From the NCBI GenBank assembly GCA_040006815.1, contig JBDTWF010000010.1, positions 1 through 29,894 of the forward strand: 29,894 nt of DNA, in the 5' to 3' direction. The notes under the pieces were generated by a model. That model searched no databases. It was not told the DNA's origin and saw only the letters and a list, made by a program, of their open reading frames with translations. Source of the stretch: Candidatus Moraniibacteriota bacterium (GTDB lineage Bacteria; Patescibacteriota; Minisyncoccia; Moranbacterales; UBA1568). A program made the position numbers and the translations under genes. This document shows, one piece after another, positions 18,058 to 23,734 of the stretch (within the stretch, counting starts at the first letter, position 1; each line of letters begins with the position of its first letter).

Positions 18058-19068
18058 CTACAAAAGGCCGGCCTGTGAGTCGGCTGGTGGAGTGAGGTCG
18101 AGATGGCGGTAGCCTTCGGGAGTGACAATGCGGCCCCGCGGAGTGCGAGCGAGAAGCCCGATCTGGATGAGATAGGGTTCGATGACGTCTTCGATGGTCT
18201 GCATTTCTTCTCCTGTGACGGCGGCGGTGGCTTGGAGTCCGGCTGGCCCCCCTTTGAATTTTTCGATGATGGCCCGGAGGATGGCTCGATCGGCTGGCTC
18301 GAGGCCGAGATGATCAATCTCAAACATCTCGAGAGCGGCTGTTGCGATGTCGGGAGTGATCTTGCCTTGACCATGGACCTCGGCGTAATCGCGGACGCGT
18401 TTCAGGATGCGATTGGCCACGCGCGGAGTGCGGCGGCTGGCCCCCGCGATTTTCTTGGCGCCCTCTTCTTCGAGAGCGACATCGAGGATCCGGGCTGAGC
18501 GGTGGATGATTTCCTCTATCTCTTCCGGATGGTAGAACTCCAGGCGGTGCGTTGAGCCGAAGCGATTCCGGAGGGGATTCGTCAGGGAGCCGAGGCGCGT
18601 CGTGGCACCGATAAGCGTGAATCGCGGGAGATCGAGTTGAATGGTTCGGGCCGCCGGACCCTTACCGATGATGATGTCGAGTTTGTAGTCCTCCATGGCC
18701 GGATACAAGACTTCCTCGATGGATTTGTTGAGGCGATGGATCTCGTCGATGAAGAGAACATCGCCTGGTTCGAGGTTGGTGAGAATGGACCCAAGGTCGC
18801 CCACGCGCTCTATAGCTGGGCCGGAAGTGACGCGGATATTGACGCCCATTTCCTTGGCAATGATGTGGGCGAGCGTTGTTTTTCCGAGACCGGCGGGACC
18901 ATAGAGGAGAACATGGTCGATCACCTCCTTGCGTTTCTTGGCGGCCTGAATGAAAACAGAAAGATTCTGCTTGATCTTGGACTGACCGATGTATTCTTCA
19001 AAATGTTGCGGACGGAGGGTGGTATCGAGCACGACATCCTCTTCTTTTCCGAGAGCATTTGTGAGCAT
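18058..19068 (-). CDS. ruvB: Holliday junction branch migration helicase RuvB
   Basis: [70 protein letters not shown] 19068 follows an AAGGG SD. Confidence 0.96.
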
Positions 19069-19112
19069 AGTTTTCCCTTGGCTAAGCCTCAAAAGAAGGC
19101 TCCATAGAGCCT

Positions 19113-19141
19113 ATGGTAGCACCTCTTGACAGTATTTCCAA
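19113..19141 (-). promoter_or_regulatory. Promoter for the ruvB operon
   Basis: Minus strand TTGGAA-17 nt-TACCAT with a TG extended -10 motif. Confidence 0.55.
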
Positions 19142-19154
19142 GCCGTGCTAAACT
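19126..19154 (+). promoter_or_regulatory. Promoter facing the non-coding RNA
   Basis: TTGACA-17 nt-TAAACT with a TG extended -10 motif; no plus-strand CDS follows before the terminator. Confidence 0.7.
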
Positions 19155-19233
19155 GCCGCTTCGCTCTCGTGCCCAAAAAAGCGAAAAAACAAACAAAAAA
19201 CGCAGCCAGCGTTTTTCTTTTTGGTTCTTTTTG

Positions 19234-19406
19234 AAATTCCTCACATGTAGACAATTGGGAGCTACTATCTTTTGCTCTCAACGTAGGAGGGGTCTGCCGC
19301 AAGGCGAGTCAAGACTGGGTAGAGGGGTTTCGGCTCTTCTATACCTCGACACCAATCCATTCCCGGGGCTCCCATGCTCTGGGCCTTGTCTACAGGTGAG
19401 GAATTT
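19234..19406 (+). ncRNA. Structured non-coding RNA, probable 6S RNA
   Basis: Ends pair over 21 nt with one mismatch (19234-19254 with 19386-19406). Inner helix TGGGAGC/GCTCCCA, a large central bubble, and GCAA- and TTCG-capped apical hairpins whose G-U pairs favour the + strand. Flanked by a promoter and a terminator. Confidence 0.65.
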
Positions 19407-19430
19407 TTTATTTGAATAAAAAGCGAACGA

Positions 19431-19468
19431 AAAAACTGAGGGCATTCCTGCTCTCAGTTTTTCTTTTG
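19431..19468. terminator. Bidirectional terminator for the pilB-like gene and the ncRNA transcript
   Basis: AAAAACTGAGGGCA-TTCC-TGCTCTCAGTTTTT. Confidence 0.85.
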
Positions 19469-19476
19469 AAAATATT

Positions 19477-22400
19477 TTAGAGATCAGTGACGCGTTTTAC
19501 TTCGTCAAACGAAGTCTTGCCTTCGATGAGGGAGAGAATGCCATCCTGGATGAGCGTCAGCATGCCGCCCTCTATAGCCTGCGTTTCGATTTCATGAGCG
19601 AGAGATCCCCTCGCGATGAGCTCTTGGATCTTCTGATCGATGATGAGCGTTTCGGCGAGAGCAATTTCTCCTTCGTAGCCGGTTCCATTACATGCCTCAC
19701 ACCCCTCGATATCCCAGATTTTTTCTACCTCTTTGGCCGTGGGCCGCATTTTTTCGGGGAAAGTAGCGAGCACTTTCGTGAGGAGAGCCTTCTCTTCAGT
19801 GGTTGGGGCGCGCTGTTTCTTGCACTGCTTGCAGAGGCGGCGCACGAGGCGTTGAGCCATAAAGAGATTGGCCGTATTGGCGAGGTCGTCATTTCCGATG
19901 CCCATCTTGAGGAGGCGGGGGACGGCGCTTGCGGCTGAGTTGGTATGAAGTGTGGAGAAAACGAGATGACCCGTCGCGGCGGCTTGAATGGCGATACTGG
20001 CCGTTTCTTCATCACGGATCTCACCAATCATGAGGATGTTTGGGTTTTGGCGGAGAAGCGAACGAAGAGCCGTGCTGAAAGTGTAGCCCTCAGTTTCATT
20101 CACTTGCGTTTGGAGGAGGCCGGGAATCTGATATTCGATCGGATCCTCGACGGTGATGATCTTGACCTCGGGTTTGTTCAGGCGCGCGAGAATGGAATAG
20201 AGAGTGGTGGTTTTTCCAGAGCCAGTCGGACCAGTATTCAGGATAAGGCCGTTTGGCCTGCTAATCGCCGAAAGAAGGCGTTCCAAATTGAGCGGGCGCA
20301 GTTCAAGGGCTTCGAGTTCGAGCTGAATAACGGACTGGTTGAGGAGGCGCATCTCAACGGTTTCCCCGAAGCCTCCGAGAATGATGGAGAGACGAACATC
20401 TACTTTACTCTCCTTGGTCCCAGGGAGAGGATTTTCGAGTTGGATGGAGAAGCGGCTATCCACCACCCCTGCCCGTTCTCCAGACTTCAGCCCTCCGAGA
20501 AGCTTCACGGCGCTCATGAGGCTGGGATACTCATTAATCGGAAAAGAGGCGACCTCTTTGAGGATTCCATCGAGGCGGAGACGCACAGTGAATGTTTTCC
20601 CCTGGGGTTCGATGTGGACATCAGCTGCTTTGAGGGCGAGGCCAGCCGCGAGGATTGCGGAAAAGCGTTCTTGGGAGTCAATCGATTCCAAGAGCTCGGA
20701 GAGTTTCTTTAGTGAGGAAGAGCCTCCAAGAATTTTATCGATGAGTTCTTGTGGAACACGGGCTGCTCGAGTCAATTCGCTTGGCATAAGCTCTTCATAG
20801 ATATTCTGGAGAGTTTCGGTCTGATCGGAGACGCGCCACACCTCATCGAGCGTGGTGATCCCCTCAAGGGCCTTGAGGATCCCGTCCTGGGTCATGGTGA
20901 CCATACCGTCTTCGAGAGCCGCCTGAAAGATCTCTTCTTCCGAACCGAAATTATTGATGATCTTTTCGATCTCAGTCGTGATCTTGAAGATTTCGAAAAT
21001 ACCGAGCCGGCCTTTGTATCCAGTAAAGTGACAAGCGGCACACCCGACCGCTTTCCAAAGTTCTGGAATGTCCTGTGGGAGGGAGAGTTTGGCCTTGGGC
21101 GAAATAATGGTGATGAGACGGATGAGGGAGTCCTTGGTCTCCTGCGCCGGGATGTAGGCTTCGCGGCACTTGAGACAGAGTTTTCGGACGAGGCGCTGGC
21201 CGATGATGACATTGATGGACGAGGAGAGGAGAGACGGTTTTACGCCGAGTTCGATAAAACGCGGGATGGCGGCGGGAGCGGAATTGGTGTGGAGGGTAGA
21301 GAAGACGAGGTGGCCCGTGAGGGCGGCATTCACGGAGATGTCAGCCGTCTCTTCATCGCGAATCTCGCCAACCAGGATGACATCCGGATCTTGGCGGACG
21401 ATGGCACGAAGAGCGGTGGCAAAGGTGTAGTCCTTGTCCTTGGAGACTTCAGTCTGAACAATGCCTGGAAGCGAATACTCAACCGGGTCCTCGACGGTGA
21501 TGATCTTGATGCCGGGCTTATTGATGCGGTGAATGAGAGTATAGAGAGTGGTGGTTTTTCCGGAGCCGGTGGGGCCGGTATTGAGGATCATGCCATGCGA
21601 CTTCTCAACTTCCTTCATGATGACATCGTGGGCCAAGCCGCGGAGCCCAAGGGCTGAGACATCGAGGAGGACATCCTCATTGGAGAGGAGGCGCATGTTG
21701 ATGCTCTCGCCGCTTTTCCCGGGGATGATGTTAACGCGGACGTCGATGCGCTTCCCTTCGATCTGGACGAAGTAGTGTCCGTCCTGGGCGCGATCTCGGA
21801 TGTTGAGGCGCATCCCACCAATCATCTTGATGCGCGAGAGGAGGAGGTGGTAGATCGACTGCGGAAGCATCCCGATGTCCTGGAGGACTCCGTCAATACG
21901 GTAGCGGAGGCGCACCCTTTCTTCTTCGGGTTCGATGTGGACATCGCTTGCTTCGAGCTTGCGCGCGCCAGCCAAGACGATTTCCATAGCTAGGGTCGTC
22001 GAGATTGATCGATTCTCCTTGAGGCTGATGAGTTCTTTGAAATTATTCTCGAATTTCTCGAGGTCTGCGCCCGAGAGCGAGACGCGAATGAGGTCGAGAT
22101 TGTCGATGAAAGTCCGTCTTTCGTAGCCGTGCCAAGTGCGTTCCACGGAAGGGAGTGAGGCGACAGAGACGAGACTTTCCCAGCCTTTTTCCTGTGAAAC
22201 GGTGCGGATATACTCCAAAACAGCTGGGTCTTCCGGGCGAGCGATGGCAAAGCGCACCTGAGCATTCTTTTTTAGGAAAACGGCGATCTGGAGCCGGCGG
22301 CTATCGGCCTCTGGAATGAGCTGGACATCTTCCGGCGAAGCGGGGAAGACATGAAGATCGACATAGGAAAGGCCGAGTCGTTGAGCAACCGCCGAAGCCT

Positions 22401-22500
22401 CCTCTTCAATGGAGTGCTCCCGCATCTTCTTCAGAACATCTGAAGTTTTTTTGGCTCGATCAGTGTCCTTGGGGCGAGTTTCACGCGTTACTTTGGGCAT
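19477..22500 (-). CDS. pilB: Tandem-duplicated PilB/GspE-family secretion ATPase (two complete ATPase modules)
   Basis: Two copies each of ASDVHIEP/AADVHIEP, R-R-DG, Walker A GPTGSGKTTT, TVEDP.EY, Walker B GEIRD, TGHLVFSTLHTN, QRLVR and a tetracysteine site. Start set at ATG 22500 after a TATAAT; the track extension to 22932 overlaps the next gene. Confidence 0.88.
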   Translation of the reverse strand: MPKVTRETRPKDTDRAKKTSDVLKKMREHSIEEEASAVAQRLGLSYVDLHVFPASPEDVQLIPEADSRRLQIAVFLKKNAQVRFAIARPEDPAVLEYIRTVSQEKGWESLVSVASLPSVERTWHGYERRTFIDNLDLIRVSLSGADLEKFENNFKELISLKENRSISTTLAMEIVLAGARKLEASDVHIEPEEERVRLRYRIDGVLQDIGMLPQSIYHLLLSRIKMIGGMRLNIRDRAQDGHYFVQIEGKRIDVRVNIIPGKSGESINMRLLSNEDVLLDVSALGLRGLAHDVIMKEVEKSHGMILNTGPTGSGKTTTLYTLIHRINKPGIKIITVEDPVEYSLPGIVQTEVSKDKDYTFATALRAIVRQDPDVILVGEIRDEETADISVNAALTGHLVFSTLHTNSAPAAIPRFIELGVKPSLLSSSINVIIGQRLVRKLCLKCREAYIPAQETKDSLIRLITIISPKAKLSLPQDIPELWKAVGCAACHFTGYKGRLGIFEIFKITTEIEKIINNFGSEEEIFQAALEDGMVTMTQDGILKALEGITTLDEVWRVSDQTETLQNIYEELMPSELTRAARVPQELIDKILGGSSSLKKLSELLESIDSQERFSAILAAGLALKAADVHIEPQGKTFTVRLRLDGILKEVASFPINEYPSLMSAVKLLGGLKSGERAGVVDSRFSIQLENPLPGTKESKVDVRLSIILGGFGETVEMRLLNQSVIQLELEALELRPLNLERLLSAISRPNGLILNTGPTGSGKTTTLYSILARLNKPEVKIITVEDPIEYQIPGLLQTQVNETEGYTFSTALRSLLRQNPNILMIGEIRDEETASIAIQAAATGHLVFSTLHTNSAASAVPRLLKMGIGNDDLANTANLFMAQRLVRRLCKQCKKQRAPTTEEKALLTKVLATFPEKMRPTAKEVEKIWDIEGCEACNGTGYEGEIALAETLIIDQKIQELIARGSLAHEIETQAIEGGMLTLIQDGILSLIEGKTSFDEVKRVTDL

Positions 22501-22594
22501 ATTTGGTATTGGTATTACCTCGATTATACCTCGAAAGAAAGAAAAAAGAGAGGCGAAACCTCTCTCCTCCCACCCTTCTTGTTTTTTCCGAAAA

Positions 22595-23734
22595 TTATTT
22601 TTTCTCTTTCGTAATCCAGCTTTGGATAAGGCGTTCAGCGGAAGCCAGATCCATTCCTGAGAGCGTTCCCTCGAGCGTGTCTCCGAGAAGCTGGCCTTCT
22701 GGGAAGAGCGCCTGGATCTTCTCAAGCTCATCTTGTGTCGTCGTCTTGAGGAAGAGATGGAGGCTCTCTTGGTTTTCCTTGAAGAGGAGGACGAAGACGC
22801 TTGCGCCTGTAAAACTTCCTCGGAGCTTGTCGAGGGCGAGGTGAAGATCCTCCATCTTGGTGCGTGATTGGATGAGGTCCTCAATCGTAACTGGAGCCCA
22901 GATGAGCTTCTCAGCTTCTTCGTAGTGGACATTTCCCATGATGCGTCCCCAGAGCTTGAGGAGATTGAGAGGCTGGGTCTTATAGAGATTCTTTACGATC
23001 TTCTGTTGATCCGCGCCCTTTTCCATGAGACGCGAAGCGATTTCGAGCGCGCGGGGAGTCGTGTTCTTTTTCTGAAAGGATTCGGTGGCCGAAATGATGC
23101 CGGTGAGGAGCGCTTCGGCGACTGGTCCAGTGAGGAGCTCCTTCCCAACTTTTTCGAGAAGCGATGCCGCGATCTCCGATGACGAAGAGGCAGTCACCTC
23201 GACGAGATTCAGCTGGCCATACTGTTCGTTGGCAGACTGGAAGTCAATGTTGACGATAGGGACTTCATAGAAAATGTCCGGATTATTCTCATACATTTTC
23301 CCGAGACTCTCTTTGTCTCGAGCCGAAATCGTGATGACCAGATCAAATTTGTACTTGGCGAGGATGAACGAGAAATCCCGAGGATCGATGGTGCCGTGCT
23401 CGGGCGTGAGATGGATGCGGAGCTCCTTGTCGAAGCGCTCGGTACGCACATTGAGGATGGCATTATGTTCCGTATTGAAGGAAAGGACGAAATCTCGAGC
23501 GCCAGAAATAGCAGTCTCAAAATTCTTGGGGACCTGGAGAAAAGAGAGCTCTTCCTTTTTCTCAGAAAAATGATCGCACCCGACGGTCGGGGACTTTCCG
23601 AGCTCTTCCATGAAGAGGCCAATGGCAAAGCTCGTGGCCAAGGCGTCATGTGTCGGATAGGGAGGAATGAGGATAAGCGGATGCTTGGCCGGCTTGACGA
23701 GCTCAAGGAATTGCTCTTCTTTCGAGAGGGACAT
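22595..23734 (-). CDS. DHH/NrnA-family-like protein with degenerate catalytic motifs
   Basis: Family scaffold (LTGIISATESFQKKNTT, GAD, LLKLWGR, NEQYGQLNLV) is present, but DxD reads THD and DHH reads DFQ. Start set at ATG 23734. Confidence 0.7.
   Translation of the reverse strand: MSLSKEEQFLELVKPAKHPLILIPPYPTHDALATSFAIGLFMEELGKSPTVGCDHFSEKKEELSFLQVPKNFETAISGARDFVLSFNTEHNAILNVRTERFDKELRIHLTPEHGTIDPRDFSFILAKYKFDLVITISARDKESLGKMYENNPDIFYEVPIVNIDFQSANEQYGQLNLVEVTASSSSEIAASLLEKVGKELLTGPVAEALLTGIISATESFQKKNTTPRALEIASRLMEKGADQQKIVKNLYKTQPLNLLKLWGRIMGNVHYEEAEKLIWAPVTIEDLIQSRTKMEDLHLALDKLRGSFTGASVFVLLFKENQESLHLFLKTTTQDELEKIQALFPEGQLLGDTLEGTLSGMDLASAERLIQSWITKEKK

Follow-up and report, generated by a model that had tools for sequence, protein, structure and literature searches.

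Positions 19234-19406 of the window, by which we mean the whole stretch of 29,894 nucleotides analysed here, very probably carry a genuine new RNA gene. As read from comparative analysis, it is a stand-alone, single-copy, non-coding gene of ~170 nt that lies beside ruvB, and its predicted conserved fold is a closed four-way junction. Both the RNA family and the fold appear to be new, matching no catalogued family, and the function may prove analogous to a known one. An earlier note on this DNA had described an unannotated 6S-like RNA with built-in alternative hairpins, either a divergent 6S RNA or a new switchable ncRNA. An unannotated structured RNA, single-copy, conserved across order and class, covarying and equipped with its own consensus promoter, is indeed what emerges; the 6S identity and the switch fared less well. 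As to function, we tentatively favour a housekeeping RNA that binds protein, as a scaffold or a decoy, and acts in trans.

The RNA gene and its neighbours

The structured locus sits in a 384-bp spacer between two genes of the minus strand, and the surrounding region is laid out as follows.

18058-19092, minus strand: ruvB (Pfam RuvB_N, AAA_lid_4 and RuvB_C), reading away from the RNA gene
19126-19154, plus strand: RNA promoter found by consensus scan, with the -35 box TTGACA at 19126-19131, a 17-nt spacer and the extended -10 box TGCTAAACT at 19146-19154
19161-19233, plus strand: predicted 5' leader, conserved in neither sequence nor length
19234-19406, plus strand: structured core of the RNA
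19428-19475, no strand assigned: second hairpin with A/U tracts, read from the sequence, in the gap that separates the RNA gene from the 3' end of the pilB-like gene
19477-22932, minus strand: pilB-like ATPase (Pfam T2SSE, two stretches), convergent with the RNA gene

The source genome comprises 828,697 bases in 108 contigs and is 98% complete, and a genome-wide search finds a single copy of the RNA gene in it. For ruvB, the true start may lie at the ATG of 19071. With a length of 1151 aa, the pilB-like ATPase contains two tandem T2SSE ATPase modules; relatives match either half, and in some of them a single-module protein occupies the same position. Among the open reading frames of the locus there is no gene downstream of the RNA, on its own strand, that the RNA could control.

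The gene order of pilB (convergent), RNA and ruvB (divergent) has been kept over long distances. ruvB adjoins the RNA in 26 of 27 relatives, which is every relative whose DNA extends to that side, and pilB does so in most of the 27, where the sequence extends far enough. In class-level loci from other orders, ruvB is the neighbour in 24 of 25 cases and a pilB-like gene in all 25, and ruvB is again the neighbour at all five loci of a shorter version of the RNA from another class (see below). The public runs found to contain the locus consist of assembled DNA or of contigs from relatives; they show its conservation and no transcript ends.

Does the constant companionship of ruvB mean that the RNA stands in for a missing part of the Holliday junction machinery? 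RuvA is encoded elsewhere in the genome, on contig 86, so the RNA is no stand-in for that protein; the idea that it replaces RuvA or mimics a Holliday junction was rejected on this ground and because the shorter version has no four-way junction.

Promoter, strand and transcript ends

Transcription is predicted to start near 19161, as judged from the position of the promoter. A same-strand promoter of the form TTGACA-16/18-TAnnnT, usually with a TG extension, lies upstream of the RNA in 27/27 relatives. Its distance from the core varies among them, which implies a non-conserved leader whose length ranges from ~15 to ~105 nt. Within the predicted leader of the source sequence, the hairpin at 19196-19216 scores as terminator-like on both strands, which is odd for a transcript that has to read through it. 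This hairpin and the one at 19428-19475, each with A/U tracts on either side (two-way terminator-like), bracket the core of the RNA.

The strand is fixed by non-Watson-Crick pairs. An invariant G.U pair beside the loop of hairpin P4 (helix names are given below) is found in 27/27 and 40/41 sequences of two alignments, and one G.U pair of hairpin P2 in 23/27 sequences; on the opposite strand these conserved pairs would be A.C, and the RNA strand is therefore the plus strand. A riboswitch or 5' leader of ruvB was considered and rejected, since the conserved G.U pairs and the promoter put the RNA on the strand opposite ruvB.

At the 3' end, the 3' strand of the closing helix P1 together with the U tract at 19404-19413 likely forms an intrinsic terminator. 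Relatives have either a U tract after P1 or a separate terminator hairpin just 3' of it. The hairpin at 19428-19475, which gives a weak match to a terminator-like sRNA model, is likely a two-way terminator that serves the convergent transcripts.

The promoter region has a further peculiarity. A minus-strand promoter, TTGGAA-17-TGcTACCAT (19141-19113), is interleaved with the RNA promoter, such that the TTGACA box of the RNA falls within the spacer of the TTGGAA promoter, and it would serve ruvB. A comparable interleaved promoter is present in 12/27 relatives and was not seen in 15/27. In some other relatives the -10 box of the RNA promoter ends in CAT, which could be the start codon of ruvB on the opposite strand. 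The arrangement may allow the two promoters to compete.

A covarying four-way junction

The plus strand of the core folds with an MFE of -77.0 kcal/mol (z = -5.66, with 0/200 shuffles as good) and the minus strand with -61.2 kcal/mol (z = -4.0). The fold was evaluated on two alignments. A1 is a structure-blind MAFFT alignment of 27 relatives; A2 contains 41 sequences, takes in other orders and was fitted to a model, and is therefore biased towards that model. The elements of the fold, all on the plus strand, are these.

19234-19254, plus strand: 5' strand of P1 (MFE fold)
19255-19281, plus strand: P2 hairpin, stem 19255-19262/19274-19281, with an 11-nt loop that contains CUAUCUUUU
19286-19294, plus strand: 5' strand of P3 (MFE fold), GGA and then GG and GUC, pairing with 19348-19358
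19295-19306, plus strand: P3a hairpin with a GCAA loop (MFE fold), small and variable
19308-19315, plus strand: joining segment GUCAAGAC (consensus GYCMAGA), whose G, C and AGA do not vary in A1
19317-19345, plus strand: P4 hairpin (MFE fold), UUCG loop at 19329-19332, with an invariant G.U/G-C next to the loop
19344-19358, plus strand: CCUCGACAC and then the 3' strand of P3 (UCC at 19356-19358), with invariant columns in A1
19362-19383, plus strand: P5 hairpin, stem 19362-19369/19376-19383, loop UCCCAU
19386-19406 (element to 19413), plus strand: 3' strand of P1, then the U tract at 19404-19409 and 19411-19413

In A1 the five helices are 91.3% paired and 35 of their 53 pairs show compensatory change, compared to 12-22 in slid controls; 0/500 shuffles reach the observed values. 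In A2, 45 of the 53 pairs are compensatory, and the slid controls over both alignments span 12-32. The changes are spread over every helix: 13/19 pairs in A1 and 17/19 in A2 for P1, 6/8 and 8/8 for P2 (which is 99.5% paired), 4/5 and 5/5 for P3, 6-7/13 for P4 (6/13 in A1), and 6/8 and 8/8 for P5. Of the eight P2 pairs, the outermost has a pair probability of 0.66 and the other seven have 0.95-1.0; in P5 the value is ~1.0.

These data are best described by a closed four-way junction of P1, P2, P3 (which carries P4) and P5, with joints of 2-5 nt, a structure that rests on covariation among relatives. P3 opens into an inner junction that consists of a variable insertion site, occupied here by P3a and ranging from 0 to ~90 nt in relatives, and the UNCG-capped P4. 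In relatives P3 is a 5-6 bp helix of the GGGAGC/GCUCC type; in the source sequence it is weak and interrupted.

Much of the structure anticipated by the earlier note is present in the MFE fold of the plus strand. Its 21-nt closing helix is P1 (19234-19254/19386-19406), with 11 + 9 pairs around one mismatch, and its branched apex corresponds to the UUCG hairpin at 19317-19345 and the GCAA hairpin at 19295-19306. The two local hairpins that it pointed out are P2 and P5, both in the MFE fold, mostly with pair probabilities of 0.95-1.0, and both covarying. They had been cast, however, as an alternative state to a rod in which 19256-19262 pairs with 19368-19374 around a bubble of ~20 nt per side. 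That inner helix is absent from the MFE fold (pair probability 0.00) and costs 9.1 kcal/mol to force; it is 66.7% paired in the 27 relatives, essentially without compensatory change. Considering that the local hairpins covary while the rod helix does not, P2 and P5 are the conserved ground state, and a rod helix with no covariation and a cost of 9 kcal/mol argues against any open bubble; covariation supports the closed junction in its place. The term switchable thereby loses its basis, since evolution supports just one of the two proposed states.

Sequence conservation is concentrated in a few places. Within the order, the invariant bases are those of inner P1 (UGUAGRCAA/UUGYCUACA), the P2 loop CUAUCUUUU, GYCMAGA, the tip of P4 and CCUCGACAC. 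The inner 9 bp of P1 (TGTAGACAA) remain near-invariant across the class. Besides inner P1, the class largely preserves the GG of P3, the tip of P4 and CCUCG; many homologs also have the AGA, and nothing else is kept. The invariance of the P2 loop is limited to the order, and hairpin loops differ between orders. The P2 loop could form a pseudoknot with the AGA in the order, where the bases are invariant, but this idea was set aside because the pairing is not retained class-wide. By inspection, the conserved internal loop is a poor fit to a K-turn, a T-loop or a tetraloop-receptor.

Distribution and a minimal version

How widespread is the RNA? By BLAST, most genera of its family have a homolog with 70-86% nucleotide identity. 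R1, a covariance model trained on the 27 relatives of A1, finds the RNA once per genome in 141/151 genomes of the order, and so the lack of conservation in relatives that the earlier note had said would speak against the gene is not observed. Two genomes of the order carry two close copies on one contig, near-adjacent in one (G150:C99:80-388) and ~200 nt apart in the other (G155:C19:22615-23153). At the level of the class, the same first model detects the RNA in 59/151 genomes. Exact-pattern matches among GTDB species genomes come from Moranbacteria/Moraniibacteriota, Yanofskybacteria, Azambacteria, Paceibacterota and the "Parcubacteria group". These matches place the lineage in the Parcubacteria-type CPR, which are ultra-small and uncultured bacteria.

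Outside the class, R1 finds a version of ~120 nt in 5/6 genomes of one family, and a single weaker, partial match in 1/4 genomes of another family. The ~120-nt version lacks P2 and P5 and retains P1, P3, the internal loop and P4, including CCUCG and the AGA of the joining segment. Its five loci (L226-L230, from family f106 of another class) are divergent from ruvB, and pilB does not adjoin them; the RNA looks like an irregular hairpin with internal loops of 10/5 and 12/5 nt. The existence of this minimal version indicates that P2 and P5 are lineage-specific arms rather than two states of a switch.

Comparison with known RNA families

The earlier note had also said that a match to another known RNA family would speak against its reading. 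At gathering score, Rfam has no match anywhere in the window; over 19234-19406 there is none even at E <= 10, and a search of the minimal-version loci against Rfam returned nothing relevant. RNase P RNA and tmRNA, which were considered as identities, are found elsewhere in the genome above their cut-offs, on contig 43 (RNase P) and contig 22 (tmRNA). A search of the literature on 6S and other ncRNAs in CPR, Parcubacteria and Patescibacteria found no description of the RNA beside ruvB.

The resemblance to SRP RNA (4.5S / Bacteria_small_SRP RF00169, RF01854) deserves closer scrutiny. The minimal version shares with it the form of an irregular hairpin whose conserved asymmetric internal loops lie close to a tip capped by a tetraloop. 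SRP RNA is also processed from a precursor, as the RNA described here would be. RF00169 and RF01854 nevertheless find no match in the source genome (E <= 10) and none in 40 relatives. The conserved tip is a UNCG and not a GNAR loop, and the alignments contain no domain IV motif of the GGAA/AGCA type. The protein side of the particle is missing as well. The M domain of Ffh (PF02978) is absent from the source genome and the 40 relatives, and equally from 151 genomes of the class and 151 of the phylum; the SRP GTPase domain PF00448 scores below cut-off in the source genome, and the DTAGR motif of SRP-type GTPases occurs in none of its reading frames. The SRP system, as represented by the Ffh M domain, is thus absent from all genomes sampled in the class and in the phylum, and the absence of SRP from Parcubacteria has already been published (Nelson and Stegen 2015, PMC4508563). 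SRP RNA was excluded because there is no model match and because both Ffh and FtsY are absent.

Bacterial Y RNA (YrlA) likewise combines a long closing stem of conserved sequence with a multi-armed, cloverleaf-like module. The RNA beside ruvB differs in having no T-loop/D-loop signature and no model match, and the Ro/TROVE protein (PF05731) is absent from the source genome. Y RNA was rejected because no Ro protein is encoded and Rfam provides no match.

Among structured bacterial RNAs, raiA, OLE and HEARO were orphans at discovery, known from comparative genomics. The present RNA resembles them at that stage in its covariation, synteny, conserved loops and lack of an assigned biochemical function; it differs in fold and sequence, in its confinement to Parcubacteria-type lineages and in its tie to ruvB.

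The 6S question

6S RNA (SsrS; RF00013 and related models) has a number of general traits in common with the RNA beside ruvB. Both are about 150-200 nt long, with their 5' and 3' ends paired in a long closing stem, their own strong sigma-70-type promoter, probable trimming of the ends, hairpins flanking the centre that are lineage-specific, and a single housekeeping copy of the gene. The search with RF00013, which the earlier note had proposed as a check, gave no match at the locus or anywhere in the source genome at E <= 10.

Does this group of bacteria have a 6S RNA elsewhere? Within the class, RF00013 detects a conserved 6S-like family in 7/151 genomes, with one match above the curated cut-off (52 bits, in genome G181). 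A second model (R2), built from these class matches, finds the family in 60/151 class genomes, with one match each. Twenty-six of those genomes also carry the RNA beside ruvB, at a different locus, where 22 would be expected if the two were independent (Fisher p = 0.17). There is accordingly no mutual exclusion between the two RNAs, and the occurrence of a separate 6S-like family at another locus of the same genomes indicates that the RNA beside ruvB is not the 6S RNA of the lineage. In the order itself, a 6S RNA is found neither by RF00013 (source genome) nor by R2 (0/40).

The 6S-like family of the class (Paceibacteria) has the conserved blocks UUUUGGGUCAAAC, GGGAGYCUUAUAU and CACCCACCUGGA. 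Examples are L100:1501-1671, L101:1101-1252 (minus strand) and L102-L105, and at 3/6 loci the gene lies just downstream of ndk. In the source genome, the region after ndk holds a promoter and an open reading frame, and no 6S.

Some bacteria carry two 6S RNAs, and so it could be argued that the RNA is a decoy for RNA polymerase of the 6S type, whether as a diverged 6S or as a 6S-like second paralog. The local hairpins would then melt on the enzyme to give a mimic of an open promoter, and synthesis of a product RNA would release the RNA. Size, paired ends, a strong promoter of its own and a housekeeping distribution all look 6S-like, and with no 6S found in the order by Rfam or R2 (0/40) that function is unaccounted for. 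We nonetheless consider this quite unlikely. Rfam 6S gives no match at E <= 10; covariation supports closed hairpins on both sides, with joints of merely 2-5 nt, where 6S has an open bubble; the rod helix has no covariation and costs 9 kcal/mol; and the minimal version offers only an internal loop of about 10/5 nt. A near-invariant closing-helix sequence is, to our knowledge, not a trait of 6S RNAs, and a true 6S-like family is present at another locus in 26 genomes that carry the RNA. The closed junction and the coexistence with that separate family are the main arguments against a 6S-like role, and they leave the proposal of a divergent 6S RNA unsupported.

A possible protein-binding housekeeping RNA

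Transcription of the plus strand from the consensus promoter at 19126-19154 would yield a stable, abundant RNA. The primary transcript would most likely be trimmed on both sides to a core of ~173 nt, whose ends are locked in the 21-bp P1; removal of the leader would occur by processing and, as a conjecture, the 20-bp stem would suit RNase III. The core would then fold into the closed four-way junction, with P3 leading to the inner junction and the UUCG-capped P4. A protein could recognize the near-invariant inner P1, the invariant internal loop between P3 and P4 (GYCMAGA/CCUCGACAC) and the tip of P4, with P2, P3a and P5 as dispensable, lineage-specific decoration. The RNA most probably does not work as an open-promoter mimic of the 6S type, and it probably does not work by antisense pairing.

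Several findings are consistent with this reading. Those bases that do not vary throughout the class (inner P1, P4 tip, CCUCG and AGA) lie in helices or in the loops that flank them. Conservation of helix sequence and of flanking loops, combined with dispensable arms, fits protein recognition better than antisense pairing, and a consensus promoter with a near-universal single copy fits a constitutive housekeeping RNA. A conserved core with optional arms is also the pattern of RNase P, SRP and 6S RNAs. Two points weigh on the other side: a general role in housekeeping leaves unexplained why the RNA is so tightly linked to ruvB in two classes, and the invariance of helix sequence could also stem from tertiary contacts, ligand binding or catalysis.

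Perhaps the RNA acts by base pairing after all, as an sRNA whose pyrimidine-rich P2 loop CUAUCUUUU and the segment UCCUUCCC after P3 pair with the purine-rich ribosome-binding sites of mRNAs. The P2 loop is invariant within the order, and these C/U-rich single strands are complementary to Shine-Dalgarno-like sequences. Neither segment is conserved class-wide, however, and the minimal version dispenses with P2 and P5 while keeping the helical core. When the conserved motifs and their complements were counted in the genome, the complements were not clearly enriched at particular sites. Moreover, the architecture goes far beyond what a seed-plus-terminator sRNA needs, and we judge a base-pairing role unlikely. 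We hold similar doubts about a device that works mainly in cis, in which the strong RNA promoter competes with the interleaved promoter of ruvB, convergent transcription insulates ruvB from pilB read-through, and the RNA product is secondary. Such a device would account for the fact that the RNA stays beside ruvB in two classes and beside pilB throughout the class, and the interleaving at 19141-19113, with its counterparts in 12 of the 27 relatives, points the same way. Yet interference requires no conserved fold, while 35-45 of the 53 pairs covary and loop bases are invariant; the interleaved promoter was not seen in the other 15 relatives; and the small genomes of these bacteria commonly keep gene order.

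A ligand-sensing or catalytic RNA, either an aptamer that stands alone or, like RNase P, a ribozyme acting in trans, would make sense of the invariant asymmetric internal loop and the invariant helix sequence, and also of a single-copy universal gene with a conserved core and optional arms. On the other hand, there is no controllable gene downstream on the RNA strand, no riboswitch or ribozyme model matches, and no alternative pairing has evolutionary support, all of which makes this very unlikely. The 21-bp terminal inverted repeat might even suggest a miniature inverted-repeat mobile element or a chance palindrome. The sequence is present in one genomic copy, however, its site is syntenic across well over a hundred genomes, and the arms of the repeat covary as an RNA helix with G.U pairs; on copy number and covariation, this explanation was ruled out as next to impossible.

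Implications

RNAs that almost all members of a large group of bacteria retain as one copy are very few, and those known, namely rRNA, tRNA, RNase P, tmRNA, SRP and 6S, all belong to central machines. Parcubacteria genomes are among the smallest and most stripped-down of all bacteria. Genomes so reduced, which have done without SRP, still keep an elaborate RNA, with one of their strongest promoters, fixed beside ruvB. The main additions made here are the quantified coexistence with a separate 6S-like family and the ~120-nt minimal version that defines the core. With a covariance model of the family, a gene that now goes unannotated in many Parcubacteria genomes could be labelled.

A bolder proposal, which we think rather unlikely, is that the RNA forms part of a ribonucleoprotein as its RNA subunit, or else is a ribozyme acting in trans, of a kind unseen outside the Parcubacteria-type CPR, universal there and tied to recombination and repair via ruvB. 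If that were true, the RNA would be as universal in these bacteria as RNase P RNA or tmRNA, and it might control the production or activity of RuvB, or fill a core function that has been lost in protein form. Knowing the binding partner of the RNA would add a new class of RNA and could reveal a core process specific to the CPR.
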